This document shows, piece after piece, positions 560-60,600 of a stretch of DNA of 64,000 bases. The first letter of the stretch is position 1; the number at the start of each line of letters is the position of its first letter. The translations under genes and the position numbers were made by a program. A model generated the notes under the pieces. That model ran no database searches. It saw only the letters and a list, made by a program, of their open reading frames with translations, and had not been told where the DNA came from. Origin of the DNA: Euglena gracilis (lineage: Eukaryota); NCBI GenBank assembly GCA_039621445.1, contig CP154954.1:47843847-47907846 (forward strand), written 5' to 3'.

Positions 560-872
560 GGGTTCGGGAGCACCCGTGGGGCATCAGTGGCAGCCTGGGG
601 AGGGGGCACACCCAAGGCCTGCGCGGACCGCTGCAGAGTGTCGAGGTCCCGGCAGAACAGCGCCAGCGTCTGCAATGTGGACGTCTGCCCGCCATTGAAA
701 GGAGAGTCGGACCGTATCGGACTGCAGAGGGAAATGGCGATCGTTGGTGAACACTTCTTGAACGTTCTTGAGGACATGTATGTGTACATGTCCACCGCAA
801 ATGAATGGAGACATGTACACCCACATACACAACACACACACACACACACAGACGCGCGCACACTGCCACACA

Positions 873-959
<87 letters not shown>

Positions 960-3700
960 ACACACACACACACGCGCGCGCGCGCACACACACACACAGA
1001 CGACAGACAAATGTGGGTGGGATGGGTGCACGTGCATGACTGACATTGGGTTCATGTCAGACATACACTTAATGTGTTCACAAAGACTTGGTGGACACAA
1101 ATTGTATTTGGAGAACCAAAATGAATACAACAAAACTCTTGTGAACACATGGGAACACACAAAAAAGTTCGTTGAACACAAAAAAATTGATAACATGTAA
1201 AGTGAATAGATTAGATTGCCGCAATGGGTTCTACTCCCCGTGCCGTCTGGTGGTTTTTTTTAAGTCTGGGGCGGGCTAACCAGGCCCCCCCCCACCCCTC
1301 CCCAGGGGAGGGGGATCGAGGAACCAAACTTGAAGAAAAAAAACTTGGTGCCATCCGGGGCGGGAGAAAAGGAAGAAATCGGATCTGCGGAGAGTTAAAA
1401 AAATGTTCATTTGCTTTGACTCAGTAAAATAATTTTTTTATGGTGAACGCATGATACACAGAAAAATTTGGGTGAACACACTAACTGAATGTCTGGTTCA
1501 TGTGTGACGTGCAAAATCAACTGCACATACCTGTTGATGTGGAATTCAGTTTTTCCGGGAGAAGGTAGGAAGGCAGACCTAAAATCCAGGCTGCCCGGGA
1601 TCGCTTCGCTTCGGACGCTGCCCTTCGCCAGGCTGGACTCCGACTTCTGGAGTTCCATCACGGCGTGGGAGTACATTCGGGACAAGGCGGGAGGCTCGCA
1701 GGGAGGGCGGCCTGCCTGGGAGCTGCCCATTTGGTGTCCCTGTGGCCGGGAGGCCCACCTGAACAGAGTGCACCTTGCCGAAAAGCAACCCGGAACGTTT
1801 GTGGCACTTGCTGTGCTTCTGAATTGAAAGAGGGATGATCCACACACCGAGCCACAACAACCCCCACCCAACAAAAACCACCCACCCGCCCACACACCCA
1901 CTCACCCACACCCACACCCACACCCATTCACCCACACCCACACTCGCAACCCGGCCAGCCTAGCAGCTCCAGCCGGGAGGACTGGTTGAGCTGCTCTTTT
2001 TAATGGACATGGTTTGTTCGCAAAGCGGCTTTGAAATGAATGAAACGATTGTTGAAACGCTGCCACTCTCCCACCCCAAGGCAACGTCCCGAGGGCACGG
2101 GGGTGCGGACCGCCCCCGGCAACGGTGACGGACCCCCGGCGGCGGCGGGTGCTGCCGCCGTCCGACGCCCGGCGGGGGACGGAGTCCGTCTCCGACCTGC
2201 AGATCGGTGGGGGACGCATGGGAGAGGAAATGGGTGACACCAATGAAGGCATGGCAGCCACCTTGGGTGGGGGGCTGACCTGATCCCTGTTCGCCTATCA
2301 AGCACGTTAGGCTGGGGCAATGCACAATTTCGTATTGATGATCGTGATCATGATACATTGGTTGCAGGTGTATTCATGATGCTTTCATTTGCACAAAATC
2401 CATCTGTCTCAACAAAGAACTGGTTTAGGGTTTGTTCAGGTTTCTTTGTGTCCTCCATAACCATACTCCTCCACCCCAAATATAACCAACCAGTTGCTGA
2501 TACTTGGGTTTCCGAAAATGGGCCCCAGGGCACTCCTTTATAACATCCAGTCACGGGTTGCTTATATTTGGGGTTGCTTACAGAGGGGGCTTGCTTCTAT
2601 TTTGAGGGAGCTTGCCTCTGTATCTTCCATAAGCGTCGATTTCACAAAGATTAGAAAAAAAACATTGGTGGGATTGAAAATGGAGGTGCCAGAGGGTGAG
2701 AGAAAACTTCATTTTCATAAAGCAAACATGCTAACCAACGTCGAAGCCCACCCCAAAAACCGTGAGAATTCTGGACACCAGAGGATAGACGCTGTTCGAA
2801 TATTCTGATTACCACAACACTAAGAGGGTGGCCTTTCCAGGTGGTTTTGGGATGCCTTATTTTGCTGTCATAGTGCGGGAAGCGTGAGCGCATGCCCCCA
2901 AATTGTGCACCTCGGCCACGATGGACCACACGCACGGCCGGCGCGACCGGGGGACGGGGGCCATCGCACCGGAGGTCCAGAGGGCGGTCCCATGGCGGGG
3001 TCACGCTGGCGTGGTCACTCAGCGCCTGCTGCCACGTCATGCGGGCCCGGGTCAGCCCCGCGCCCAGGGAGGTTCTCAAGGACCCCCGCGGGGGGTGGGT
3101 GGGGGGTCCAGCCGGCTGGGAAGAAGGTGCTGGTTGAACCCCCCCCAGGGGTAGACGTCCAGGGAGGTGGTTTGAACCCGGATGGACCCGACTGGGACCC
3201 AACAACAGGCAAACCAGCCCAATTCCAGCCGGGATGCATTTTCTCAGCTAGATTTTTGAGGTGGAAACCCCCAAAAAAGTACCAAAAAATGGTCGGTTTG
3301 GGCTATTTTTGACCACCTTCTTTTTTCAACATTTTCGGCACTTTGTGCCGAAATTCTTTTTCGGTCCAGCCCGGCTTAAACGGACTGCGAAAACTTTATA
3401 ACCCCTCGACCCTCAGGGGGGGGGACAGCCCAGCTGGGAGGTGCTGGCTTGCCGGCTCACCCTCCCCCCCCCCGGAGGTGGGATGGGGTCCGGCTTAAGA
3501 ATTCCCTGCCCGCGACGCCGCCCGGCGGGGTGAGCGACAGCGGGTGGACCACGTTGCCCTCCCCGGGGCGCCGCGGACGGCGGCCCACCGGGGGGCCGTC
3601 CGGGGGCCCTGCGCCGCCGCCGTCCATCGGGGTGGGAGGGCCCGTGGGGAAGAAGACGGGGCGGCCTGGGAGTGTGGGGGTGAGGGGGGGCGGTTGGGAA
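560..3700 (-). CDS. Multi-exon hypothetical protein (partial; probably continues off the left edge and upstream)
   Basis: GC-rich coding-like blocks: ~3512-3690 (GEGNVVHPLSLTPPGGVA), ~2960-3059 (GLTRARMTWQQALSDHASVTPPWDRPLDLR), ~2090-2260, ~1585-1715 (SRMYSHAVMELQKSESSLAKGSVRSEA), ~590-755 (TIAISLCSPIRSDSPFNGGQTSTLQTLALFCRDLDTLQRSAQALG). Only the 3512/3059 join was checked in frame. No family recognised. Confidence 0.45.
3065..3508. mobile_element. hAT-like MITE (family C) forming a predicted nonconventional intron (3060-3511)
   Basis: Termini CAGGGAGGTTCTCAAG / CTTAAGAATTCCCTG. Flanks CCCGCGCC (3057-3064) and CCCGCGAC (3509-3516), a 7/8 TSD. Internal TTTTTCGGTCCAGCCCGGCTT is shared with copies at ~37484-37916 and ~47342-47583. 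Confidence 0.8.
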
Positions 3701-4269
3701 CAGGACGCTGAGGGCAGCAGAGAAAACTTGAGGCGATGGGTGCTTTGGGGCAATGGGAGTCGTGAACCGGCGGGGAGCTGTTTCGCGACGCCGGGGGACG
3801 TGACACCGCGAGGGGGAAATGGGAAATGAGGCATCGCACACGGCTGGGCTGAAAACTTTTCACAGACGCCCTATAATACCTCCCCGTTTTTGTGCTACAG
3901 TGTGAAACTCCGACTTCGAAGAATCTTAAAGAATTCAATGCCCAAGCTTCACTGGGAGGAATGCACCCAAGAGCACTCCATTCTCCGCATGTTCAATCAG
4001 TGTGCACCCATCGAATGACCCAACCGTTGCGAAACAAAAACCAGCGGAGACGACGAGAGGAACGGGCACCCGGTCCAGGTCCTGTCTGTGAAGAGGTCAG
4101 TCGGTGGGATAGCCGTTTGCCTGAATGAGCATTCTTCAGGGGACGAGAGCGAAGGAAGCGCTTGCAAGGCATCCCAGGGTCAATTTCTGGCAGGTGATTG
4201 CCAGCAGAATGTGCAGGGAGGCCCACTACAGCAGCAGAATACCACACCCATCAACCAGAACACAACGGG

Positions 4270-8707: not shown

Positions 8708-8977
8708 CAGGGGTTTTTTAAAGACGGGGGGGGGGATCCCCCCCACCCACCCACCCCCTGGGGGGGGGGCCCCGGGGGGGGGGGGTCCCGGGGGACCCAC
8801 AAAAAAAATGGCCAAAAATCGCGAAAAGTGCTAAAAATAGCATTTTTCGGCGCCTGCGGCGCCGAAAAATATATCCCACCCCCCCTCTGGGGGGACCCCC
8901 CCCCCCCCCCGGGCCTCGGCCCCCCCCCCCTACCCCCCCCCTCCCCCCTCCGGGGTCCACGACTAAAAAAACCCCTG
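8708..8977. mobile_element. hAT-like MITE (family A)
   Basis: Termini CAGGGGTTTTT.. / ..AAAAAACCCCTG. Interior near-identical to 51309-51611 (AAAAATCGCGAAAAGTGCTAAAAATAG...CGGCGCCTGCGGCGCCG). Flanked by C-run+AAC on both sides. Confidence 0.8.
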
Positions 8978-25510: not shown

Positions 25511-25773
25511 CAGGCTTCTTTTTAAGACCCCGGGGGGGGGTCCCCCCCACCCACCCAGGGTGGCGCGGGCCCCCCCGGGGGGGGGGGGGGGCGCCCCCCC
25601 CCCCCCCAAATCGGGCCCGTTAAAGGCAATCTTCAAAATTTTCGGCGCGAAGGTATACCTGGCGCCTCCGACGCGGGAGCCCCCCCCCCGGGGGGGGGGG
25701 GGGGGGCCGGCGCGGGCGCCCCCCCCCACCCCCCCCCCCCCCCCGGGGGTCTTCTGACTTAAAAAGAAGCCTG
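25511..25773. mobile_element. hAT-like MITE (family B), no TSD retained
   Basis: Perfect 16-bp TIR CAGGCTTCTTTTTAAG / CTTAAAAAGAAGCCTG. Interior AAATCGGGCCCGTTAAAGGCAAT shared with 29132-29440. Confidence 0.85.
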
Positions 25774-27566
25774 TTTGGAAGATTTGGCCAGGCATCCCTT
25801 TAGTGTGTCCACAAGGATGCTGGTGAACACAATTTTTTGGGGGGTGAACACAGGTGAACACAGAAAAAAATTGGTGAACGTATGAAAACACATAGAAAAA
25901 AAGTTTGGTGAACACAAAAAAAATTGATAAAATACGGGGTCCAAATATGACGAGTGGGGGCATGAACAGTCCTACTTACAGTCAGAAATCAGGGTCCGGG
26001 TTTTCCACATGCGGTGTGAGGAAAAAAGGGGGGTTTTCACAGGGATAGGTATAAATATATAGGGTCATAGGGTTTACATACGTATAGGGGTTTGGCGTAG
26101 ACCTCTGTTTCATAAAAAAAACGCTTTTTACTTGCATGCCAGTGATCAGAACCCTCGGAAAATGTGATATTTAAGCAAATTTAATATAACTCAATAAAAA
26201 TACAGGAAATTGGAAGAAGATGGGGGGGAGTGGTTAAAGGTTTGGAGACAAGGTTCCAAAAGAGAAAGTTTATGGGGCGACAATTTCCGGAAGGAGGGTG
26301 TAGGAAATGAGGTGAATGAATATGAAATTAAAGCATGGAAAATGGGATGGATGAGTCGACCAATAGAGATGCTTTCACCCCACTGCCTTGTTGAAAGGAA
26401 AAAAAATACCCCAGGGCGTCAGCAATCTGCCTAAAGAAGTGGTTTGCCGGTTGGCGGCTGGGTCTCCATCCACCCTGTATCGGGACTGCCTTCAGTCTGC
26501 GAGGGAGGAGGTTTGAGCAGCAGGTGAAGTGGAGCAGTGCGGTGGTCCGCGAGGTGGTTCGACGGCGCCGACAGATCTCATTCCCAATCCGTCCCAGCTG
26601 AGTGGGAAGAGCCCAGATGGGGGGGGGGGCGAACCAATTCCGCACAAAGCGGTGGTACATCAAAGTTTCGCTGTTTCGCTTTGTGGTTCAGCACAAAAAA
26701 AGTTTTGCCAAGCCCTGGATAAGCCGTTATGGTGGAAAAAAAAATCCAGCCACTTGCTTTCAAAAGCTCACACACCTGCAAATATGAATACACAATACCG
26801 TATAAGAATATATTATATACATTACAACATATTATTTATATATACAATATGTATACAATATAATATATTATAATATATAATATAAGAATATACATGTGAG
26901 AATCACATACACCAACACCCAAACTCTCCCAAGAAATGGCCAAAATTTTGCTTTATTTTTTCCCCCAGACACCCTGGGCATTAGCTCAACTAAACTGGAC
27001 CACTTGGCACACTCTGGATGGATGCAAAGCAGACTCACACCCATTCAGCTGCCTCCAAAAACCCACCCACCCCCAAACCTATTGGTCAGGCAGGAAGAGA
27101 CGGAGGTCTGGCCCCAATCGAATTGGGACCGGGTGACGGGTGGGGGGAGGAGGCGCAGTGGCGCGCAGGCGCCTTCGTGGCGTGCTCTTGGCCGGCGGAG
27201 CGCCGCGGCTAACCCTGCAGGGGTGGGGCAGGCTTGCGCATATGGGGGCACCCATGGAGCCCCAGCCGTTGGCCTGGGGGGTCTGAGGCTGAGGGGCCCA
27301 GCAGTGGGGCCCAAAATCTGTTTGACGAAAAAAAAAAACACCCCAAGCAACCCCACAACACCCCCAAGTCAGGTGTGGGCATGGTCCTTGATAGTTTGAT
27401 CAGGGGGATCTGATTTGGGGGGGTGTCCTCCCGATCAAGGACCCACTAGCCCCCCTCCCCCAATCGAAGAGGGGGCGGGGTGGGGGGCACCCCTTCCCAT
27501 TTACACTCCAGACACCATCCTCATATCGAACCGTGAGGTGCCCACATGCACACACACACACACATG

Positions 27567-28304: not shown

Positions 28305-28553
28305 CAGGCTTCTGTTTAAACAACGCCAGGTGGTGTCTTGTGCTGTGGGGTGCCTGCCCATAGCAGGCCCCCTCCCCCCCATTTGGAGGCGGTTCTGGGT
28401 CCCAGTGCCTGCCCATCCCTTGAACCCAATTCTCGGACGTGTGCACTGCAAAACACTCTCCCCCCAAAACCGACCTGGGTTCGAAAGTGCATACCCCCCC
28501 CTGCCTGTCCACAGCATCCCCAGGGGGGGGGGGCTTCCTTAAAAAGAAGCCTG
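28305..28553. mobile_element. Diverged MITE with family-B-type termini
   Basis: CAGGCTTCTGTTTAAA ... CTTAAAAAGAAGCCTG; interior resembles family D (GTGCCTGCCC units). Confidence 0.6.
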
Positions 28554-29131: not shown

Positions 29132-29440
29132 CAGGCTTCTTTTTAAGACCCCCAGGGGGGGGGGAGGGGGGGGTCCTCCCGCCCCCCACCAAGGGTGGCG
29201 GGACCCCACCCACGGGGGGGGGGACCCCCCCAAAATCGGGCCCGTTAAAGGCAATTTTCAAAAAATTTCGGCGCTTCGCGCCGAAAAGGTATACCCAGCG
29301 CCTCCGGCGCGGGACCCCCCCCCCCCGCGGGGTCCGGCGCGGGCCCCCCCCCCCGGGGGGGGGGGGCCCGGTCCGGACCCACCCACCCTCTCCCCCTCCC
29401 CCCCCGGGGGGGGGGGTCAGGTGACTTAAAAAGAAGCCTG
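29132..29440. mobile_element. hAT-like MITE (family B) with perfect 8-bp TSD
   Basis: 16-bp perfect TIR; ATTGGCTG at 29124-29131 and 29441-29448. Confidence 0.92.
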
Positions 29441-29838: not shown

Positions 29839-44597
<14,759 letters not shown>

Positions 44598-46378: not shown

Positions 46379-49300
46379 TCACGGCCCCTCTGGGCCGGAG
46401 ATGAAGGGGGCGGTGAGGCACTGGGGGCCGGAGGCCCGCAGGCCGGGGACCTGGCCCAGCCGCTGCCGGCGGAGCAGCTCCCGCACCGCGCGGCAGAGGC
46501 CCTCCGCGGTGACGCGGTACTGCGGCGACGGCCCCACCCGATCCGTTTCCGGGGCGGCCTTTGCAGGGCGGCCAACACACTCATGCCATGCCTTCTTTCC
46601 AAGCACCCATAGTATTCCAGCATCCCAGACCCAGTCACGTCGAGTCACGCCCAAGTCAGGCCCAAGTCAGGCCCAAGTCAGGCCCAAGTCAGGCCCAAGT
46701 CAGGCCCAAGTCAGGCCCAGTTCACAGCCATTCCATAAATATTGGTGCTTGCTCCTTTCCTCGCCAGCCATCAACACTCCACTTCCCAGCCCTGAATCAA
46801 AACCTTCGGCGTGTCAGCTGCAGGTGGTTTGGTACAGCAACCGCAGCAATCCATGCGATGGCGTTTCTGTTTTCACTGCGTCATGACAGGACTCAAGGAG
46901 GGCCGTCTACGGCTCTTCACCAACACCTTTAGCATCGCCCACGTCAAAGCTCCTTGGCTGGCCCCGTCCAGGACGGTGTCCTGAGCCGCCTGGTGCTCCT
47001 GTGGGACAACGCGTACCGAATACGCCGTGACGTGACGTGACGTGACGTGACGTGACGTGACGTGACAGCCACACGGCGGCGGCACGGGTCACACCTGACA
47101 GCCCGTCAACAGCGTGACCACCTTCGCCTCTTGACTACGGTCTGGCTTGGAGCGCCGGCGCGGCGGTTGTTGCGGAGCGACGGTCGCCAGGCGGCCCAGG
47201 ACCGAGGGGGGAGGCGGCAGGTACCGGGCCGCGGTGTGGCACTCCTTAAGCGGGCAAGCGGCCCGTGCCACACCTGAGCGACGAGTGAGAGCGTTTGGAG
47301 TGTGGAGTGCCTCCCAATCTGATGGTATGTGGGGGGGGGGGCAGGGTATTTCTTAAAAACCCCCAGGGGGTCCCGTGGGCCGGCTGGAAAAAGGTGCTGG
47401 CTGGACCCCCACCCGAAAAATTTTTCGGTCCACCCAGCTTCGCCAGGCTGAACCCAGCTTTATTTACCAACTTTTTTTTTCCAGAGAACACTCGGTGGGG
47501 GGGTCCGAAACCCGGCTGGGAGGTGCTGGCTGGACCCCCCCCCCCCTTGGGGGTTGCGCCCCATCCAGCTTAAGAGAACCTCTCGTGGGTTTTTCTGAAT
47601 CGCCGATTTTGAATTTTCTGTTGCATGCAAGGTTAAAAAAAAAAACGTCAGTGGATATTCGTGAGCATCCTCCAACAATTTTTAGGTGTAGACACAATGG
47701 CCCAGGATACTGAAGGAAAGCCACTCCCTCATGACCCATATATTCATGATACACCACACACACACACCTATCACACATACATATACACACACACATACAT
47801 ATGTACACATACATTTACAGTACATGTATAACACATGTACACATACAATACATATATACAGCAATTCTTAGGAAAAGGGATTCACAAAAAGTCTTCCGAA
47901 ACGGGGACCATACTTCTGGCCTAACTGTTGACCCAAAACTGGCCAATTTTCAGCGCGCCGATCCTAACCCCTTTTCCTCAAAATATGGGCACAGACTCCC
48001 CAAACCCGCCAGAAGATGCCAATCAGCGACTCGGGTGGTGATGCCCATCCCCTTTCCCATTGCTTGGCACACCAGCAGCTGGGGAACCGCTGGGGGTGTG
48101 GCCACAGTCTAGGACGCACGTCACCCGCACCCCCGGGGGGCAGTCGTGCACGAGGGCGCGGTCGAGCTCCTCGTCCGTCAGGGCGTTGCCGGCCCAGTCC
48201 ATGTCCGCCGGACAGAGGCAGTCGTGGAGGCAATCCTCCTGCGTGGCGGCGTCCGCCTGGATCACCTGCGGGGGGATGAGAGGTCACGTGCACAAGTGGG
48301 AGGTTGCGGCGAAGCACGTGGAGACATTCTGGGGTTTGGGTGTGTTGTTGGAATTTGTCAGGTTTTGGACACTGGAGGCGGGGTCACATCCACATCATTT
48401 GGAACATGCCATCACAGACAATACCGTGGTGTATGATGTGATATACGCCCAAAATAGAATTCTTTTTTGTTACTTCTTTGTCTGGAATGTGCAAATCTGG
48501 CATTGAAAACTTCACTTGTTCTTTGGAATGCATCCTGCCGACCCCCAGTCAAATTTATAATGATATTTGTCCTCAACTAGGGGGGGGGGGCATGATAGCA
48601 GCCAATATTCATCTCCGACGGGTGCAAGGCTTCCCAAAAGAAGACAAATAGCATTCCTCAGCCAGACAAAACCTTTGCAGAATTATGCAACATGAGAAAC
48701 GTTGCAACGTTGGCTTAGCGAATGAGTGACAGTAACAACAACGACATCCCGCCAACGAGTGACAGGCTACCCAGTCAGCCAGTGGCATGGCCTGCTGGAG
48801 GACGCTTCGGCACAACCTGGCACGTTGGGGGGTGACACACCTGTGACCCGTGCCCGCTGAAGTGGAACACCACCGTGTCGCCCGCCTCGACGCCCGCCAT
48901 CAGCGCCTGCAGCGCGAGGCGGAGGTTGGCGGCGGTGGGGACCGCCCGTTCCTCTGCATCGTCCGTCGGTTCGGAACCCTCGACGGCCTGGGGCCCGTGG
49001 GACAGCGTGGAGGGTGTCATTTGCGGGGGTGACATTGTGCCCTGGGCACATGGTGTGGTGCTTCACTGTTCGACGCTTCGACCGTTCACTGATTTGAGCC
49101 AATGTCGTGCCTGCCCACCCTCTTCTATTGAACTCTTCCGAATTTTTCTGACACGTTTTTGGGAGGGGTATTTCTGTGCAATTTTTCAGTCATGACATGT
49201 GATGCTTGAAATTGCAGGCGTGGGCTTCCCCACCCCACCCTCTACAGCATCTATACCATCAACATCAACCGCGTCGACCTACAACATGTTGGGCGGCCCA

Positions 49301-50504: not shown

Positions 50505-51900
50505 GTGCGTGTGTGTGTGTGTGTGTGTGCATGTGTATGTGTGTGTGAATGTGTGTGTCTGTGTGTGTGTGTGTGCGTGCGTGTGTGTGGGTGTGTGGGT
50601 GTGTGTGCGTGTGTGCTTGTGTGTATGTGTGTGTATGTGCGCGTATGTGTGTGCGTGTGCGTGTGTATGTGTGTGTGTGTGCGGGCATATGTGTGTGTGT
50701 GTGTATGTGTGTTGTGTGTGTGTGTGTGTGTCCTTGTTGATTGCAGACGTGGTTGCGGGCTCATATCCAGAATGCTGTATGAATGCACATTGGACACTGT
50801 GGGGTACACCTCACTTGTCTTGTCACGGTGCTTTAACACCACCGTTACGGACTTTGGTGATGGTTGACTGGAGAGTATGACAAACTCCAACGTTGGCAAC
50901 AGGCAGGTCGAATAAGGAGGTTGCGAACCGCCAATGATGTCAAACCCACCGAGGACCCAAAAGAGTGAGGATGAGGAGGATGCTCCCGGATGGAGCGCAC
51001 ACCATACCCAGGCTGCCTGGCTGTGTAGTCAAGGGCCACAACCCCCTCCCCCGTGGGAAACAGGTTGGTCCGACCCTTGGGTTTCGGGCAAACATATGCA
51101 ATTTGTTGACCAAAAAATTCAAAAATGACAAAAAAAATTGAGAGAATTTTTCATCTCAGGGAAAGATTGGGGGCAAAAACAAGAATTTTTCATTGTCGAA
51201 AAATTTCTCCAGCAAAAATAAAAAACACTGGGAAAACACACACACACACACACAAACGAGAAAAACGCAAATTTTGTAACATGCAAAAAAACCTGTGTGT
51301 GTTCCCGCCAGGGGTTTTTTTAAGACCGGGGGGGGGAGTGGCGGAGCCCCCCCTACCCACCAACCCCCCTGGGGGGGGCCCCCCGGGGGGGGGGGGGGAG
51401 GGGGTCTCGGGGGACCCACAAAAAAACGGCCGAAAAATCGCGAAAAGTGCTAAAAATAGAATTTTTCGGCGCCTGCGGCGCCGAAAAGTATATCCCACCG
51501 CCCTCCGGGGGGGGACCCCCCCCCCCCGGGGGGGGGGGGGGGTGCGGCGGACCCACCTACCCTACCCCCCCCCTCCCTCCCCCCGGGGGTCCAAACTTAA
51601 AAAAATCCCTGGTTCCCGCCCTGCTAAAGAAACAGCAACTGAATTACCAGGAAACCAAGGCCAGTGCCGCAAATGTTTCACAGAGGGGAGGTGGCTGAAT
51701 CGTCCGGCCTGGGCTCATCCCACTCGGGGCGGCTAGTACAGATCTTGGTCAGCGTGGACTTTTGCCGTCCGTCCACCAGCACCTCTGCGTACACATCGCT
51801 CTCGAGGATGTCGCGCGCACCCATCACCGTGACGGCCACCTGTCGGGGGGGGGGGAGGCAGACACTGTGTGTGTGTGTCTGTGCGTGCGCGCGCGCGCGC

Positions 51901-51945
<45 letters not shown>

Positions 51946-54530
51946 GTATGGGACAGAGCTGGCCGGCAGCAAAAAAAATCGATTTTTCCAAAATATCTCG
52001 ACGATGAAGCAAAATCAAAGAAAATGTCTGGAGAGTAAAAATGAAGCTCTTGGAATGCCCTATCCAACCATGCTTTACTTTTCCCCCAACCCTTTGGGCT
52101 ACACGGCCATTTTTCAGCCAAATTTTGGCGCGGCTCTGCTCCGCTCGGGGAAGTTAAAGGAGCCCAGGAGGCTTCAAGGGTGGGCTGGGCTGGCAGAGTG
52201 GGGGCTCTGCGGCGGGCACGCGGGCCACCCACACCCGGCGGATGAGGCGGGTCTCCGCCACCTCCAGGAGGGCCACCGCACTCTCCGCCACGGCGTAGTG
52301 CGGGTACGCCCGGCCGTACTGCTCCAGCATCGCCGTGAACTGCGCGAAGGTTGGGGTCAGGGGCCCGGCACCCCAGCGCCTGGCTCCCCGTGGCAGGTCA
52401 ACAAGGCCCTCGTAGCACCGCAAAGCATTGCCGTCAGGAACCACATGGGCAACATCACTGCATGGGCGTTTTGCCTCAAACGTTGGCAAGCCCATCTCGT
52501 GCTGCCTTCATATCACCCCCCCCCCCAAAAGGTAACCAACCCCCTGGCTAATGCATCTTGCTCTGGGTCCACAAATAGCCGCCAGTGGAAAATGACGCCC
52601 AGGGCGTTGCCGGATGCGGCCCACCGCTTCCAACAGGCTAAACTGCCAACAACAGGAGAAAGAGCCATTGCTGAACAGGTCCGCCAACACACCCACCCAC
52701 CCACCCACACACACACACACACACATACACACACACACAGACACACAGACACACACACACACACACACACATCACACGAAATGCAGCAGCTTTGCGATGA
52801 TGGCAGGCATTGTGCTGATGGCACAAGGTCACCCTTCAGTCACAATCCGGGTCCGACATGTGGGGGGGTGCAAAACCTGGACCCAAAAATTCGGATCGTA
52901 AAAGAGAGCAATAAGAACAAGAACTCCAAAAAAATGAGGGACCTGAGGGACTAGAACTCGGAAGTGAGGGGCCGCCTCAGTCGCTCCATGACCGCACCGG
53001 AGAGGGCGCCCACGCCACGATGGTCCAGAAGGTCGAAGAGGCGCCGCACGTCGTTGCGCTCGCTGGACGTGGCGGCATAGCGGGCGTCGCACTCCTAGCC
53101 GAAGGGATTGAAAGAATACACGCCGTCCGAGGCAGTTCACCTCAAACTCAGCCATCTGCCCGACGTGAACCCGGTGCGAGGATACACATAGGCCTGCTAA
53201 TACCCCTCCTGTGCTCTTTGGACAGACATTGTGTGCTGTTTGGACAGGCATACTCCCTCCCTCCTGGGTGGGTGGGTGGATGGGTGGGTGAGTGGGTGGG
53301 TGGATGGGCGATTTGGGTGAATAGATTTTTTCTCACACTTCACCAAAAAAAGTTTGTCCCAGAGGGATTGCAATACGCCACCATTTTAAACTGAGGGTGT
53401 CCTTTAAACGAAAGTCGCATCTAGAAGCACAATGTGTACATCCGCAACATGGAAAGCCTGCGATTGGCATCCAGAAAAGCATGGGAGCAAAGAAAGGTTG
53501 GCCCATTTGGACTCATTCCTGCAAGACCTCAAGGATCTCAAGGAGAGTCAGGGTAAAGAGGTGGAGTGGCCAGGTTCTGTGGCGGCCCAACATTCCTGGA
53601 AACAGCTTGCCAAAGGAGTGAGAGAGGCGCGCAATTGGAATCCGACTCGCAATCGGTCAGCAAATGACGAGGCACGGACCTGTTCTGCTGCACCTTCAAC
53701 AAATGCCATGAGTCGCCCTGGCAGATCGCCGTAGGGCAGCTGCAGGCCTGGGGTGCTTACTGCTTTTGTGTACAGCTTTCCAGCTTTCGCACCTTTCAAA
53801 GCTGTAAGGCACCCGAAGCCCAATATCCCTTCTCACAGGTTTCCACGGCATCCTTGGGGGTGAGCGCTTACCGTAAAGAGCTGCCACCCTCCTGGGAGCA
53901 GGGGGGGATCGTACCCCTGTTCCATCATCACCTTGCGTTGGAGGCAGGAGGTTCCCCCCAGCCTGGGCACCTTCTCCCACAGGTGAAGGACAGCCTGCCG
54001 GAAGGCGGGAAACGACAGCTTGGCGGCGGGGGTCGGGGCCGGGGGTGCTGGCCGGCGCTGGCCTGCGTTGCAGCCCGGACAGGGGTTTAAGACCGCGGGG
54101 GGAGGGATCCACTCAATTTTCCCCGAAAATGGTCAAAATCGCTAAAAATAGCACCCTTTTTCAAAAAAATTTCAGCGCCTTCAGCGCCGAAATGTATGTC
54201 CCCCCCCGGGGACCCCGAGGGGGGCTCGGCAGACCCACACCCCGGGTCCAAGACTAAAAAATCCCTGAGCCCGGAGGGGAATGGCCCCAACCTTGCCCAA
54301 CCATGACAGCTCCATCGGGACGCGGGTGGACCGGCGATCTTTTGGCACGGCCGGGCCACACGGCCCAGCCAACCTCCCCCACGGGCCGAGCCAATGCCGG
54401 GGGACGGGGCAGCCCGCGGCCTGCAGCACGACGTGGAGGTCCTGCTCGCTGACCACACCGGCGTGGTCCGGGTCAAAGAAGCGGAACGCCCGCCGCAGCT
54501 GCTGATCGGAGAGCGGCGGGCGGCGGCCCC
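46379..54530 (-). CDS. EF-hand / C2-domain / type I metacaspase-like protein (probably extends upstream through the Pro/Ala-rich exon 54680-55010)
   Basis: EF-like segments [21 protein letters not shown] (~54440-54500) and [17 protein letters not shown] (~53000-53050). C2: [78 protein letters not shown]. Peptidase C14: [81 protein letters not shown]. Joins from 52235 to the stop were checked in frame; joins among the EF exons are not all resolved. Confidence 0.8.
46649..46720. repeat. 11-bp tandem repeat (GCCCAAGTCAG)n inside the last metacaspase intron; another 11-mer array (GGCTTCGGCCT)n at ~49973-50068
   Basis: Seen directly, about 6 and 8 copies. Confidence 0.9.
51309..51611. mobile_element. 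hAT-like MITE (family A) with perfect 8-bp TSD, nested in a nonconventional intron
   Basis: CAGGGGTTTTTTTAAG / CTTAAAAAAATCCCTG; GTTCCCGC at 51301-51308 and 51612-51619. Confidence 0.92.
54080..54267. mobile_element. Short hAT-like MITE (family A-related) with perfect 8-bp TSD
   Basis: CAGGGGTTTAAGAC / GACTAAAAAATCCCTG; AGCCCGGA at 54072-54079 and 54268-54275. Confidence 0.88.
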
Positions 54531-54679
54531 CCTCCACCTTCGCTGTACGCCCCATCCTGCTGTGCCAGGTTGGCCTGGCGGACCGGCCAACCTTTCGGGG
54601 AAGGCCCTCAAGCCGCCTCCATCCCCCCCCCAAACGAGGTGGGCCGCGCTGGGAAGTGGGTGGCCAGCGAGGCGCCAAA

Positions 54680-57600
54680 TCCACACTTGGGGCTGCGCTG
54701 CACGCTGGGGGGAGCGGCGGGGTTGGCCGCGGCGGGGGCGGCGGGCGGGGCCGCCTCCGCGGCCCCCGGGACGGCGGCGGGGGGCTCCGGCGGGGGCGGG
54801 GCGGGAAGTGATGCCGCCGCCGGTGGCGGACGGTCCACCGGTGCGTCGGCGGCGGGCGGCGGCGGGGCCGGCGGGGGCGGCTCGGGTTCCTCACTGGGCG
54901 CCGCCGGCTGGGGGGTGGCTGCGGCCTCGGCTGCAGGGCCGGCGGGCGGGTCGGGCGGGTCGGGCGGATCAGGCGGGCTGGTCAGGGCGGTGGGCGGCGC
55001 CAGTCCCCAGTCTGTGACAATTCGTCGGGGGGGGGGGGTGAGACCGGTTGTCTGGTGATCTGCCTAGCGCCGGTTGGTGAATAATAAAGATTTGAGAGCG
55101 TGGTTTCACAATATAAAAAAATCGAAAAGGCACATCCCGACTGCCCAAGTCGGGTGGGGTTTCCTTGAATGCCTGCTGAGTAGGCGATATTTATTTCGGG
55201 CATATTTTGACCTTAAAAAATGTCCTTCTTTTTGTCCAAAATGACTTAAAATGCATTAAAATGCCTCAAAAACCCTGCAAAACTAAAAATGCCTTACAAA
55301 AACCTCTAAAAAGAACATTCTGGAAGATTGTTCTCCGGATGAATGAAGATGAAGTGACAAAACTCCAGCAAAACAACAACAAGCCAACCCCAGGAAGAAA
55401 AATGATTTGACATCTTTTGAACATTGTCCATCAACCAAGACTTGAAAAGAATGAGCTTTTGCCCTTTTTTATGGTTTCGATACCCACCCCGCCCTGGGGC
55501 CGCCCTTGGAAATATACCTTCAAACCCCTTAAAAATTCCCTTCGGGTGTTTTTTTTGAAATCTTTCCAGCGTTAAGGATGATCTCTGCTGCCGAGACAGG
55601 AACTCGGTCCCCCCAGGGCGCCCGGCAATACAACCGTCAGGAATGGCATCCGCCTCAGGAAAGTCCAGGGGCGGGGTGGCTGGCGGCCAAGGGAAGGGGA
55701 CTGAGAAGGGGACTGGGGGGGCCCGGTTCCCGGAGATCCGTGGCGGGCAGGGGAAAGGCGGGCACGGGGGGAGGGATGAGGGAGGGGGAGCGCTGCGTGG
55801 CCGGGGGCGGCGCCGGGGCGGGTGCCGGCAGCGACCAGCCGGGCTGCCGGTGGGGGGGGGGGGTGGACGTTCACGGGAGGTTGGGTGGCCGTTGGTTTGG
55901 CCGCGGTCGACCGCGACCCAACCTTGGGTAAAATTTTGGTTGGGCCGCGGTCGACCGTCACCCAACCAAAAAAACAGAAATGGTTGGGCCGCGGTCAGCC
56001 GCGGCCCAACCTCCCATGACTGTCCGAGCAGCGTTTCATGGTGACTGACTGACTGGGAGACCATACTAAAACGGAGGAATGCAGAATAACTGAGGCATGC
56101 ACAAACAAGAAATGAGAGGCAACAACTATGGGAGGTGCATCCAGAAGCAGACTGCAGTGCGAAATGGATTGCGTAAACAGAAGCAACAACACGCCAAACC
56201 GCAAGCTAACCCTAAACCTAACTCTATCCCTAACCCTAACCCTATCCCTATCCCTCACCCTAACCTGCATCAGAAAAAATATGTTACTTTTAAAACGCGT
56301 GGAAAATTTCCCCCTACAGGGTACCAGCTACCCCACAGAGTCGCCCAACTAGGGTTAATACACATGGGGGAACCCTCGCTCGGCCCTATTCCTTTTAATA
56401 ACCTCAGAAATTCTCTCGGTACTGGATTATTTTTGAAAAAATTGAAGGATCAGTGCGTTCTGCAAAAGAAAAAATGTGTTTCTCTGACAATGCGTGGAAA
56501 ATATCCCCCTACAGGGTACCAGCTACCCCAAAGAGTCGCCCAACTGGGGTTAATACACATGGGGGGACCCTCGCTCGGCGCCTTCGGCGCCTCGCTCGGG
56601 TCCCCCCATGTTTTTAACCCTAGTTGGGCGACTCTTTGGGTTCGGTGTGCACCCTGTAGAGGGAAACATAGCAACGATGAGCGGGATGGTTGCAACCATG
56701 GGGGATGAAATCTTAACCCTAACCCTATTCCTTCTAATAACCTCAGAAATTCTCCCGGTATGGGAATATTTTTGAATAAAAACATTTATGAATGAGTGCA
56801 TTCCTGCATAAGAAACAACATGTTTCTTTTAAAACGCGTGGAAAATTCCCCCCTACAGGGTACTGGCTACCCCAAAGAGTCGCCCTTCTAGGGTTAATTC
56901 ACATGGGGGGACCATGCCAGTGAAAGATTCATGTCTTCCAGATCGTGCCAATGAAAGAAAAAGAGTTCAAACTGAATTGTCTTCCTCTCTTCCCCTGTTT
57001 GTTCGAGGGCCCCATCACAGTGCATTCTCAGAATAGCGGAGGACGGAGGGAACGGAGTTTGGATCAGTGGCTCGCAGAACAGTGCTCGGACGGTCATGGG
57101 AGGTTGGGTCGCGGTCGGCCGCGGCCAGCTGCGGCCGACCGCGACCCAACCATAAAAATCATTTTGGTTGGGCCGCGGCCCAACCAAACAAAGCTAAATT
57201 TGGCCGTGGTTGGGCCGCGGCCGGCCGCGGCCCAACCAAAATCCTGTTTTGGTTGGGCGACGGTCGGCCGCGGCCGGCCGCGGCACCTACCTCCCACGGA
57301 CCAACCTCCCGTGACATCCCACCCGGTGGGGGGGGGGAGGGCGGCACACGGCACAGACCAGTCCCTCTCCGTGGCCAGAGGGTCGCTGCCTGCGGCGGGG
57401 GCGTCCTCCGGGGCCGGGTCCCCTGTCAGGTCCTCCACCCGGAGGTCCGAATCCTCACTTGGGGCCTCGACCGGCACCCTCCGCTCCGCCACGCTGTCGG
57501 GCGCTGATACCCATGGGCTACCGCCAGCAGGGTCGGTCTGGAGGCGGTGGACACAGCCAGATGCAAAATGATTTTCTTCTGAGAGAATTCAAAAGATAAT

Positions 57601-60600
57601 TTGGTGAATGCATTATGGCATGGCACATAAAATCTGTCTAGCGTAGTGTTGTGGATTTTCAACGCCCTTTGTGGCTTTGTTTTGTTGGTTATATTCGGTC
57701 AGAAGAATCGAACCCGAACATCATATCATGCAATCCGCATATTTAAAATATGAATAACTCCTGTAAATGGCATCTGTCTGTGGATTGTGCAAAGGTTTAG
57801 AGCAGCCAACAAAAAAATTGCACTTTTTACAATTTGCATTTTTGTTATTATTTGCTTCATAATTCTTTGAAATCCCGAAAACCCCCAACAAATTAACAGG
57901 CATATCCGAGATAATTCATCGGTTATGCTTCAACAAAGCGACTGCCCAGGCGGTTCTTGTGGGGCAGCCACGGCTTGGGGGGTGTCATTTGAGGGGCCGG
58001 GTGGGGGGTTGAGGGCCGACTCCAGCTCAGATACATACACCGGCGGTGCGCCGAGAGAGGCGGCGCCTTGCTATGAAGAGACTGCCAGGGAAGGCCTCCA
58101 GATAGATCCGAAGAATTCAAAATTCAAAATGAGTCAACGCGTTGCCTTACTGGAGATTGAGTACTGCAGACCAGAACTGCTGTTCCCACTGCAACTCCCT
58201 TGCACACTCAAAAATTCCTGCCTCACCATTCACACCCCTTCCCACCGGGAGGGAAAGGCAGCTCCTGCCGGCGGTGCGCACTATGGGGCGGCGGCCGTGG
58301 TCCTTCTCGGGGAAGACCGCCAGCCCCGACAGCCCCCGGTGTGGGCCACGGGGCCTCTGTTGCGATGGGAGCTGCATTTTGTGCCTTGACTGATTGGCTG
58401 CCATGGGAAATACAAGCACCGGTGCAGGGGGTCGGACCTGGCGAACCCCAGCTTGTCAGCATAATGCAGGTGCGTGATGGACGTTCTGGGTGGAAACTTG
58501 CTTCTGACTTCTGTGCTGGGGAACACAGGACGAGTCTGGGGGGGACCCGCATAACACAGTGTGCAAACACGCTTGATGCACGCCCAAACATGCGCATGCA
58601 CACGCCGGTTTTCAAAAAAACTAGTGCACACCGACTGACACACTGACCCAAACACGGCGAAGAAGGAACCCCCGGGGTGGGGACTGGTGAAGCGACGACC
58701 GGGCGGTGGACGGCAGAGAGGACAGGGTCGGGGCTTCGGCTGCAGGGGAGGGGGAGGCCGGGGCGGGGGACGCGGGGCCCGAAATGTCGCGTTGGTGGGG
58801 GTCCGCAGAAAGACCGGGGGGGGGGGGGAATCTGCGTGCTTCAAGGCCAGTGGGACGGGAGAGTGGCCAAGCCCAAGCTATGCTGGGCGACTGGCTTTGG
58901 TGGTCGGGGCATTTGGCAAAAAAATAAATGGACCAAAACACATGCTGTTCATCCCCCGTTCGCTTGGAGCAGTTGACGGCAATGTTCTGCCATAAGGGTG
59001 GTCATTCACGGGAGGTGGGGCGACCGTTGGTAGGGCCGCGGCTGGCCGCGGCCAACCGCGGCCCCACCAGAACTTTTTTTAGGTGGGGCTGCGGCCAACC
59101 GCAGCCCCACCAAAATTTTTTATTGGTGGGGCTGCGGCCGGCCGCGGCCCCACCACAGTTACATTTTAAGATGGAGTTTAAAGAAATGGTGGGGCCGCGG
59201 CCGGCCGCGGTCCCACCAAAAAAAAATTTTGGTAGGGCCGCGGCGGGCCGCGGCCCTACCATGCCACAGCACAACGGAATGAGGTGGGGTCGCGGCCGAC
59301 CGCGGTCGACCGCGGTCGGCCGCGACCCCACCCAGAAAAAAGGAAAGGTTGGGTCGCGGTCGGCCGCGGCCGACCGCGACGCAACCTCCCATGACTGTCC
59401 GAGCAGCACTTTCAGGTGAACTGCATGACTCAGTGGGAACAGTAATTGGACATATTGGAGCAGAGGAATGGCATGCACAAACAAGAAATCAAAGGTATTC
59501 CCTGTGGGCAGTGCAGACAGTAGCAGAGCCCACTGCCATGTGGAAGGGAGTGTGGCTTGACGGGGAGGGGGTGGGATGCTGGGAAACAATAATTTGGTAA
59601 CACCACAGAGCCGGAGAAATTTTCAGGCCAACCAAACAGGAATAAAAATACTTTTGAATGAGTGCATTCCTGCATAAGAAAAAATATGTTTCTTTTAAAC
59701 CGGTTGGAAAATTTCCCCCTACAGGGTACCAGCTACCCCAAAGAGTCGCCCAACTAGGGTTAATACACATGGGGGGACCCTCGCTCGGCGCCTTCGGCAC
59801 CTCGCCCGGGTCCCCCCCATGTTTTTCACCCTAGTTGGGCGACTCTTTGGGTTCGCTGTGTACCCTGTAGAGGGAAATATAGCAACGATGAGCGGGATGG
59901 TTGCAACCATTGGGGATGAAATCGTAACCCTAACCCTATTCCTTCTAATAACCTCAGAAATTCTCCCGGTATGGGAATATTTTTAAATAAAATTACTTTT
60001 GAACGAGCGCATTCCTGCGTAAGAAAAAATATTGAACAGTGCTCGGACAGTCATGGGAGGTGGGGTCGCCGACCGCGGCCGGCCGCGGCCGACCGTGGCA
60101 GATGGCGACCCAACCAGAAAATGCATTTTGGTAGGGCCGTGGCCGACCGCGGCCCTAACAAAAAAATGCACTTGGTGGGGCCGCGGCCGACCGTGGCCCC
60201 ACCAAAAAAATTTTTTGGTGGGGCCGCGGTCGGCCGCGGCCCTACCACAGCGAAATTTGGCTGTCAAAATTTTGAATTGGTGGGGCCGCGGTCGGCCGCG
60301 GCCCCACCAAAATATTTTTATGGTGGGGCCGCGGCCGGCCGCAGCCCCACCAATTCAAAATTTTGAGAGCCAAATTTGGCTGTTGTAGGGCCGCGGTCGG
60401 CCGCGGCCCCACCAAAATCCCGTTTTGGTAGGTTGACGGCCGGCCGCGGCCGACCGCGGCACCCACCTCCCACGAACCCACCTCCCGTGACATCCCACCC
60501 CTGCCAGAATGCCTGGTGGAGGGCCACACCCTCAGTCAATCAAATATTTTCCTACTAAATGTGCCGCAGTCCACCTCTCTCCACAAAAACACTGATATTT

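Follow-up and report, generated by a model that had tools for sequence, protein, structure and literature searches.

A CAG-ended element in a Euglena gracilis gene is missing from RNA together with one copy of its 8-bp duplication: a probable transposon-derived nonconventional intron

The origin and the removal of the nonconventional introns of euglenids have been a standing question since the 1990s. In these introns, CAG at positions +4 to +6 stands opposite CTG at -8 to -6 and a pyrimidine|purine consensus is found at both junctions (PMC11282704), and function depends on a 3-nt spacer at the donor side and a 5-nt spacer at the acceptor side, as insertion and deletion mutants demonstrated (PMC12501133). 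Direct repeats at the junctions were reported in 2025 for 84.4% of the introns of E. agilis (PMC12501133). An origin of nonconventional introns from MITEs (miniature inverted-repeat transposable elements) was proposed in 2014 (PMC3935182) and taken up again in the 2025 study of E. agilis (PMC12501133) and in a 2024 review, which termed the CAG/CTG pair a 'TIR' (terminal inverted repeat) and the repeats 'TSD-like' (TSD, target-site duplication; PMC11282704), so that the MITE origin itself is already published, from 2014 to 2025. Here, a 64,000-nt stretch of Euglena gracilis nuclear DNA (contig CP154954.1, positions 47,843,847 to 47,907,846; referred to as the window, in whose numbering all positions are given) is described, in which an apparently repeated 444-bp MITE, element A, lies in a minus-strand gene the RNA of which lacks exactly 452 nt, the element and the equivalent of one copy of its 8-bp duplication. 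The missing segment is called intron I1.

Among described systems in which transposable elements leave RNA, Ds, a hAT element, is said to have been found by Giroux et al. in 1994 to be spliced from maize transcripts. Ds shares with A the CAGGG-type ends, the 8-bp duplication and the removal from RNA, but is reportedly taken out by the spliceosome via cryptic sites and usually imprecisely, whereas the removal of A is exact. The introners of Micromonas, Aureococcus, dinoflagellates and others are, like A, non-autonomous DNA transposons with inverted termini that turn into introns upon insertion and the target duplication of which makes removal exact; they are, in contrast, spliceosomal and bring or co-opt GT/AG, whereas A has non-canonical borders and a proposed recognition by paired termini (PMC11282704). 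Intron 4 of E. agilis gapC is nonconventional, strain-specific and of recent gain. Like I1, it has eight-nucleotide direct repeats at its junctions, which Milanowski et al. read in 2016 as a product of double-strand-break repair; unlike for I1, neither a repeat family nor inverted termini are reported in the available passages of that paper (PMC4770533).

With euglenid nonconventional introns in general, I1 has in common the non-GT-AG borders, the CAG/CTG terminal stem, the 3-nt and 5-nt spacers, the pyrimidine|purine junctions, the direct repeats that give a 'slidable' junction and the removal from mRNA. Unlike the published cases, it can be recognised as belonging to a repeated group of MITEs, other copies of which lie outside recognisable exons and are bordered by 8-bp duplications. 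While the published MITE proposals, in the passages considered, name no family, duplication length or superfamily, the segment skipped here equals the element plus 8 nt. The term 'hAT' is absent from the texts of PMC12501133, PMC3935182 and PMC11282704, and neither the equation of the 3 + 5 spacer with an 8-bp duplication nor a hAT link was found in the literature accessible as open full texts, supplementary files not included. What appears to be new is the concrete family, together with the 8-bp rule and the worked example.

Element A had been noticed from the sequence alone as a multi-copy MITE with CAG/CTG ends and a 7/8 duplication, and re-reading and recomputation returned the same limits and the same ends, with flanking 8-mers (CCCGCGCC and CCCGCGAC) identical at seven of eight positions (Table 1). 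Its inverted ends are imperfect and extend over ~22-24 nt, with a gapped terminal score of 11. By this anatomy, that is terminal inverted repeats bordered by a duplication of fixed length (7/8 in A, 8/8 in the elements B, C, D and F described below), A is a non-autonomous DNA transposon of the MITE type. Within the window, the attribute 'multi-copy' cannot be seen: only five weak partial matches to A were returned by BLAST, located at 37531-37847 and 47379-47554. A nevertheless appears to be repeated in the genome, since word depth in the DNA run X1 amounts to 171-366 within the element (3071-3506) versus 45-68 in the flanking bins, a 3- to 6-fold elevation with a step that matches the element limits at the 109-nt resolution of the bins, and since 101 of the 134 DNA contigs at the locus are 95-99% alike.

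Alignment of RNA and DNA reads and contigs to positions 1000-4260 identified a joint from 3056 to 3509, with six letters that fit either side. The 452 nt skipped are the 444 nt of A plus 8. The joint is carried by one contig of run X15 and, among raw RNA reads, by a single one of run X21, with no carrier in RNA run X24 (exon depths of ~1-2) or in DNA run X1. The X15 transcript contig (record 9; 3583 nt, depth 13.6) aligns to 1579-1696, 2120-2194, 2968-3056 and 3509-3666 with 0 differing letters and is also devoid of the two GT-AG introns of the gene; as one of these, of 773 nt, is confirmed by X21 and X24 reads (Table 1), the contig represents a spliced transcript. RNA depth across 3071-3506 is 0 in X21, X24 and X15. 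In the DNA run X1, on the other hand, contigs span both junctions of the element (record 3 the left, record 5 the right), and no contig shows any of the three intron joints in joined form. The inspection of transcripts across 3059/3512 that the sequence-only reading had called for thus agrees with its expectation that splicing removes A plus one duplication equivalent.

Seven cut positions, from 3057-3508 through 3063-3514, are compatible with the RNA, while retention of the A at 3515 in the mRNA excludes cuts beyond these. The respective borders are CA..GG, GC..GG, GG..CG, GG..GC, CG..CG, GC..GC and CG..GG; since GT-AG, GC-AG or AT-AC borders occur at none of the seven (0/7), I1 is not spliceosomal. 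At the cut 3511/3060, CAG is located at +4 to +6 and CTG at -8 to -6, with C|G at both junctions. This cut, favoured already on the letters, is one of the seven that the RNA allows and the one that yields the published 3-nt/5-nt geometry, although the other six give the same mRNA. In the predicted minimum-energy fold of I1 (-232.8 kcal/mol, z = -3.79), CAGGGA pairs with UCCCUG; none of 100 shuffled sequences was as stable, and the terminal helix is present in the minimum-energy as well as the centroid structure. Presence in DNA with absence from RNA, unconventional borders, the CAG/CTG geometry at the cut 3511/3060 and a structure that joins the ends are hence all found in I1, as in euglenid nonconventional introns.

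The assignment of the surrounding gene to the minus strand rests on its GT-AG introns, an open frame and homology, as the orientation of the X24 reads is mixed at low depth. The joint of the conventional intron I2 ends in CT..AC on the plus strand at cut +2. I4 was placed through the loose end of the X15 contig beyond 1579, which matches 701-721, and its GT-AG borders were read on the minus strand. Over 29 aa, exon 5 is 93% identical to the N-terminal end of the protein P0001, which comes from a eukprot transcriptome record, has 1150 aa and contains HisKA, HATPase_c and response-regulator domains; the product of the gene appears to be a protein resembling hybrid histidine kinases. From the first AUG of the mRNA (3627), ahead of which no earlier AUG in another frame was found, a sole minus-strand frame stays open for 260 codons through five exons. 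A falls in the second half of codon 39 and, if retained, would stop the frame 17 codons into the element. The sequence-only reading had placed A between two minus-strand open reading frames (ORFs) at 3457-3870 and 2651-3247 and had fused these in frame; the strand is correct, but the exons are ~3512-3665 and 2970-3059, and the fusion, although real, is by itself weak evidence, with three of six frames open over the spliced 440 nt of this G+C-rich DNA.

Taken together, we consider it probable, at roughly 85%, that A inserted into the minus-strand gene and that the mature RNA lacks the element and one copy of the 8-bp duplication due to splicing via the paired termini. In the proposed mechanism, the inverted termini of A would pair in the pre-mRNA, with CAG at +4 to +6 opposite CTG at -8 to -6, and this pairing would be the signal for the euglenid pathway that splices nonconventional, non-GT-AG introns. 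The machinery would cut 3 nt ahead of the stem and 5 nt after it. With the duplication written in RNA sense as t1 to t8, each copy would be cut once, in both cases between t5 and t6, the position being the same because 3 + 5 = 8, so that exactly one copy of the duplication would stay and the frame that existed before insertion would be restored without a scar. As both cuts would hit the same position of the duplication, both junctions would share one dinucleotide step, and as CAG...CTG reads alike on both strands, the orientation of A would be irrelevant. A tentative extension is that the 3-nt/5-nt rule owes its existence to a pathway that serves, or has co-evolved with, transposons with CAG ends and 8-bp duplications; to this we give a little less than an even chance.

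The window harbours six full-length elements with family termini, for which the flanks are identical at 8/8 positions in B, C and D, at 7/8 in A, at 6/8 in G and at 1/8 in E (Table 1). B, C and D had been listed before as free MITEs with CAG start, CTG end and 8-bp duplications, a description that held for each. A consensus from 13 termini of seven elements reads CAGG(G/C), a stretch rich in T, AAG, GACCCC and a stretch of G, with CAGG invariant and the fifth base G or C in 13/13 aligned termini. The corresponding pattern occurs 23 times in the window, whereas 50 shuffles contain it 4.66 times on average and 10 times at most. As to the duplications, an ungapped scan returned 610 CAG..CTG pairs whose ends match at 10/14 positions or more; 8/8 adjacent flanks are found in four of these, versus 0 with 8/8 and five with 7/8 in the 3050 comparisons of five outward-shifted flank controls. 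A scan that permits gapped termini found again 1058-1495 (element F), A, B and C. It is less clean than the ungapped scan since its six offset controls also yield four pairs scoring at least 8 (16, 12, 8 and 8); the pairs scoring 16 and 12 reuse B's own terminus via a CTG inside the duplication of B.

In a search of the window for a second exonic MITE, removal in silico of an element plus 8 nt created a long spanning frame for D only (332 codons). Since two other frames at D are also long and the flank 54276-54890 (minus strand) has no homologue among proteins of 360-2000 aa, D is not callable as exonic. The flanks of B, C and G look non-coding, and none of B, C, D and G was shown to be exonic.

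Table 1. Coordinates of element A, of the minus-strand gene and of related elements in the window
Feature	Position	Strand	Remarks
MITE A	3065-3508		444 bp, starts CAG, ends CTG, without credible coding capacity; termini fit family consensus
Left terminal inverted repeat arm of A	3065-3086	+	pairs with right arm in RNA fold
Right terminal inverted repeat arm of A	3485-3508	-	pairs with left arm in RNA fold
Left 8-bp target-site duplication copy of A	3057-3064		CCCGCGCC
Right 8-bp target-site duplication copy of A	3509-3516		CCCGCGAC; A at 3515 retained in mRNA
Exon 1	3512-3665	-	first AUG of mRNA at 3627-3625; RNA contig
Nonconventional intron I1	3060-3511	-	452 nt; RNA allows 3057-3508 through 3063-3514
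Exon 2	2970-3059	-	RNA contig
Conventional GT-AG intron I2	2197-2969	-	773 nt; 4 X21 reads, 3 X24 reads, X15 contig
Exon 3	2120-2196	-	RNA contig
Nonconventional intron I3	1697-2119	-	423 nt; 2 X21 reads and X15 contig
Exon 4	1579-1696	-	RNA contig
Conventional GT-AG intron I4	722-1578	-	857 nt; houses MITE F and (AC)n array
Exon 5	612-721	-	lower end inferred from end of homology and a GT
MITE B	29132-29440		8/8 duplication ATTGGCTG; starts CAG, ends CTG
MITE C	51309-51611		8/8 duplication GTTCCCGC; starts CAG, ends CTG
MITE D	54080-54267		8/8 duplication AGCCCGGA; starts CAG, ends CTG
MITE G	8708-8977		78% identity to C, full length; flanks 6/8, 8/8 allowing one extra C
MITE E	25511-25773		69% identity to B, full length; flanks 1/8, no visible duplication

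Several observations weigh against the proposed insertion and removal of A. Raw-read support for the joint is thin, with one read in X21 and none in X24 at exon depths of ~1-3; the remaining support is one assembled contig, of a run whose RNA nature was guessed from its record. No empty site was seen, with no joined form in DNA run X1, and the mRNA cannot distinguish the seven cut positions of I1. P0001 begins only with the exon-5 part and has no counterpart of exons 1-4, wherefore the location of I1 in coding sequence is inferred from the first-AUG rule and the open frame, and two plus-strand frames are also open over the same spliced 440 nt. Among the relatives, E carries the family termini yet no duplication. 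Furthermore, I3, the only other nonconventional intron confirmed here, does not follow the stem and 8-mer rule into which the sequence-only reading had generalised its observation: with borders CC..CG or GC..GC, it has no CAG/CTG at +4 to +6 and -8 to -6, its flanking 8-mers are 2/8 identical, and its minimum-energy fold (z = +1.81) forms no terminal stem. The autonomous hAT transposase with these termini (CAGGG..TTTTTAAG) that was to be looked for did not turn up either, as a Pfam search of 20 of the 54 window ORFs of at least 200 aa detected no transposase domain.

Spliced-looking RNA might have been transcribed from an uninserted copy (an allele, a paralogue or a retrocopy), with A not removed from RNA at this locus, a view that gains from the joint being carried by one contig and one read only and from contigs demonstrating presence but not absence. 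However, X1 shows 0 joined forms for three introns while its contigs (records 3 and 5) cross both junctions of A, the RNA contig matches the exons of the window with 0 differences, and depth falls to 0 in A where the flanking exons are covered, which leaves this explanation with only a few chances in a hundred. Hardly more probable is that the 8-nt repeat arose, without transposition, when filler DNA was captured during the repair of a double-strand break, which is how PMC4770533 reads repeats of eight nucleotides at a nonconventional intron of recent gain. Break repair predicts neither a constant length nor shared termini, whereas the length of 8 recurs in perfect form at B, C, D and F together with terminal inverted repeats, outside recognisable exons, and A appears to be multi-copy. 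The direction might also be reversed, with an original intron that spread through the genome from RNA, either by reverse splicing or because the excised circle re-inserted, so that the 'MITEs' would be mobile introns; nonconventional introns are released as full-length circles according to PMC11282704. Copies outside recognisable exons bear terminal inverted repeats and perfect 8-bp duplications, as left by a transposase that cleaves DNA in a staggered manner but not by reverse splicing; this route is considered as improbable as break repair.

Which superfamily mobilised A is a separate question, for which the terminal motif and the length of the duplication are the guides. hAT elements have the terminal motif YARNG, and a target-site preference of nTnnnnAn, which six duplications are too few to judge. 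A has the 8-bp duplication and, in CAGGG, termini that fit YARNG, and may on these two features be termed hAT-like. Alternatively, A would be spliced as described but mobilised by another superfamily that creates 8-bp duplications, such as Merlin, P or a further one, and 'hAT-like' would be a misnomer. No hAT transposase was among the 20 of 54 long ORFs scanned, no publication was found that pairs Euglena with hAT, and two Merlin families with 8-bp duplications are known from E. gracilis (PMC8101967). Although these Merlin elements are, like A, DNA transposons with an 8-bp duplication, they are autonomous, encode a DDE_Tnp_IS1595 transposase and have termini that start with GG (PMC8101967), whereas at this family of elements an invariant CAGG directly adjoins the duplication. 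With the agreement between CAGGG and the hAT motif also speaking against it, an origin from another superfamily is considered a serious minority option, to be expected in about one case out of three.

The locus serves as a worked example in that a repeated element has defined ends and an 8-bp duplication, has free relatives in its vicinity and is removed exactly according to RNA data. The relation 3 + 5 = 8 ties an experimentally defined splicing code to an insertion scar and makes the question of origin testable. If the tentative extension given above holds, insertion of such an element into a transcribed exon, in either orientation, would create a ready-made scarless intron, decayed copies of these elements would make up most of the prevailing class of introns in Euglena (about 70% in E. 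agilis), and the shared pyrimidine|purine step as well as the 'slidable' nature of most such introns would be accounted for. Should the link be general, Euglena would tolerate exonic transposon insertions by means of a second splicing system that erases them from RNA, which would help to account for the abundance of nonconventional introns.

Further observations were made on related and unrelated parts of the window. Family termini with 5/8 flanks are also found at 28305-28553; this segment and E are probably older insertions or rearranged copies. MITE F (1058-1495; 438 bp), located within the GT-AG intron 722-1578, belongs to a separate family with CAGACAT... termini and has an 8/8 duplication, GTTCATGT; its word depth in DNA reaches up to 1861 (1436-1544), so that it is highly repeated, and a 71%-identical fragment of it at 25789-25933 adjoins E. 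At 57126-59044, the ends of a 1.9-kb CAG...CTG pair match at 10/14 positions, and its 8/8 flank, GCCGCGGC, is a G+C-rich palindrome; two ORFs inside the pair gave no Pfam match, and it may be a larger element or a chance occurrence. The only hit of the Pfam scan was a sub-threshold match to Guanylate_cyc at 30348-31244 on the minus strand (E = 0.0052; 16.8 bits versus a cut-off of 21.9), the adenylate/guanylate cyclase catalytic domain, and may mark an exon of a gene for a cyclase. An Rfam search of the window returned 0 matches.

Within the gene, the X15 contig ends ~6 nt past 3666, and AG at 3667-3666 is preceded by a C-rich tract on the minus strand, so that the 5' end of exon 1 near 3665 is probably a spliced-leader acceptor, as judged from these letters. 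Between an X1 contig over 2418-3071 (intron I2) and the window, 11 letters differ, and the contig has a 9-base insertion after 2693, unlike the exons, which match the RNA contig exactly; this suggests that strain or allele divergence is concentrated in introns. Positions 4056-4229 hold a much more strongly expressed exon (X21 depth 20-32), which is represented by a separate 495-nt contig and runs on past 4229 across a 1.3-kb (CA)n array. At 4141, 4200, 4210 and 4215 part of the RNA reads differ, which may reflect alleles or paralogues, and the X24 reads on this exon are all of one orientation.

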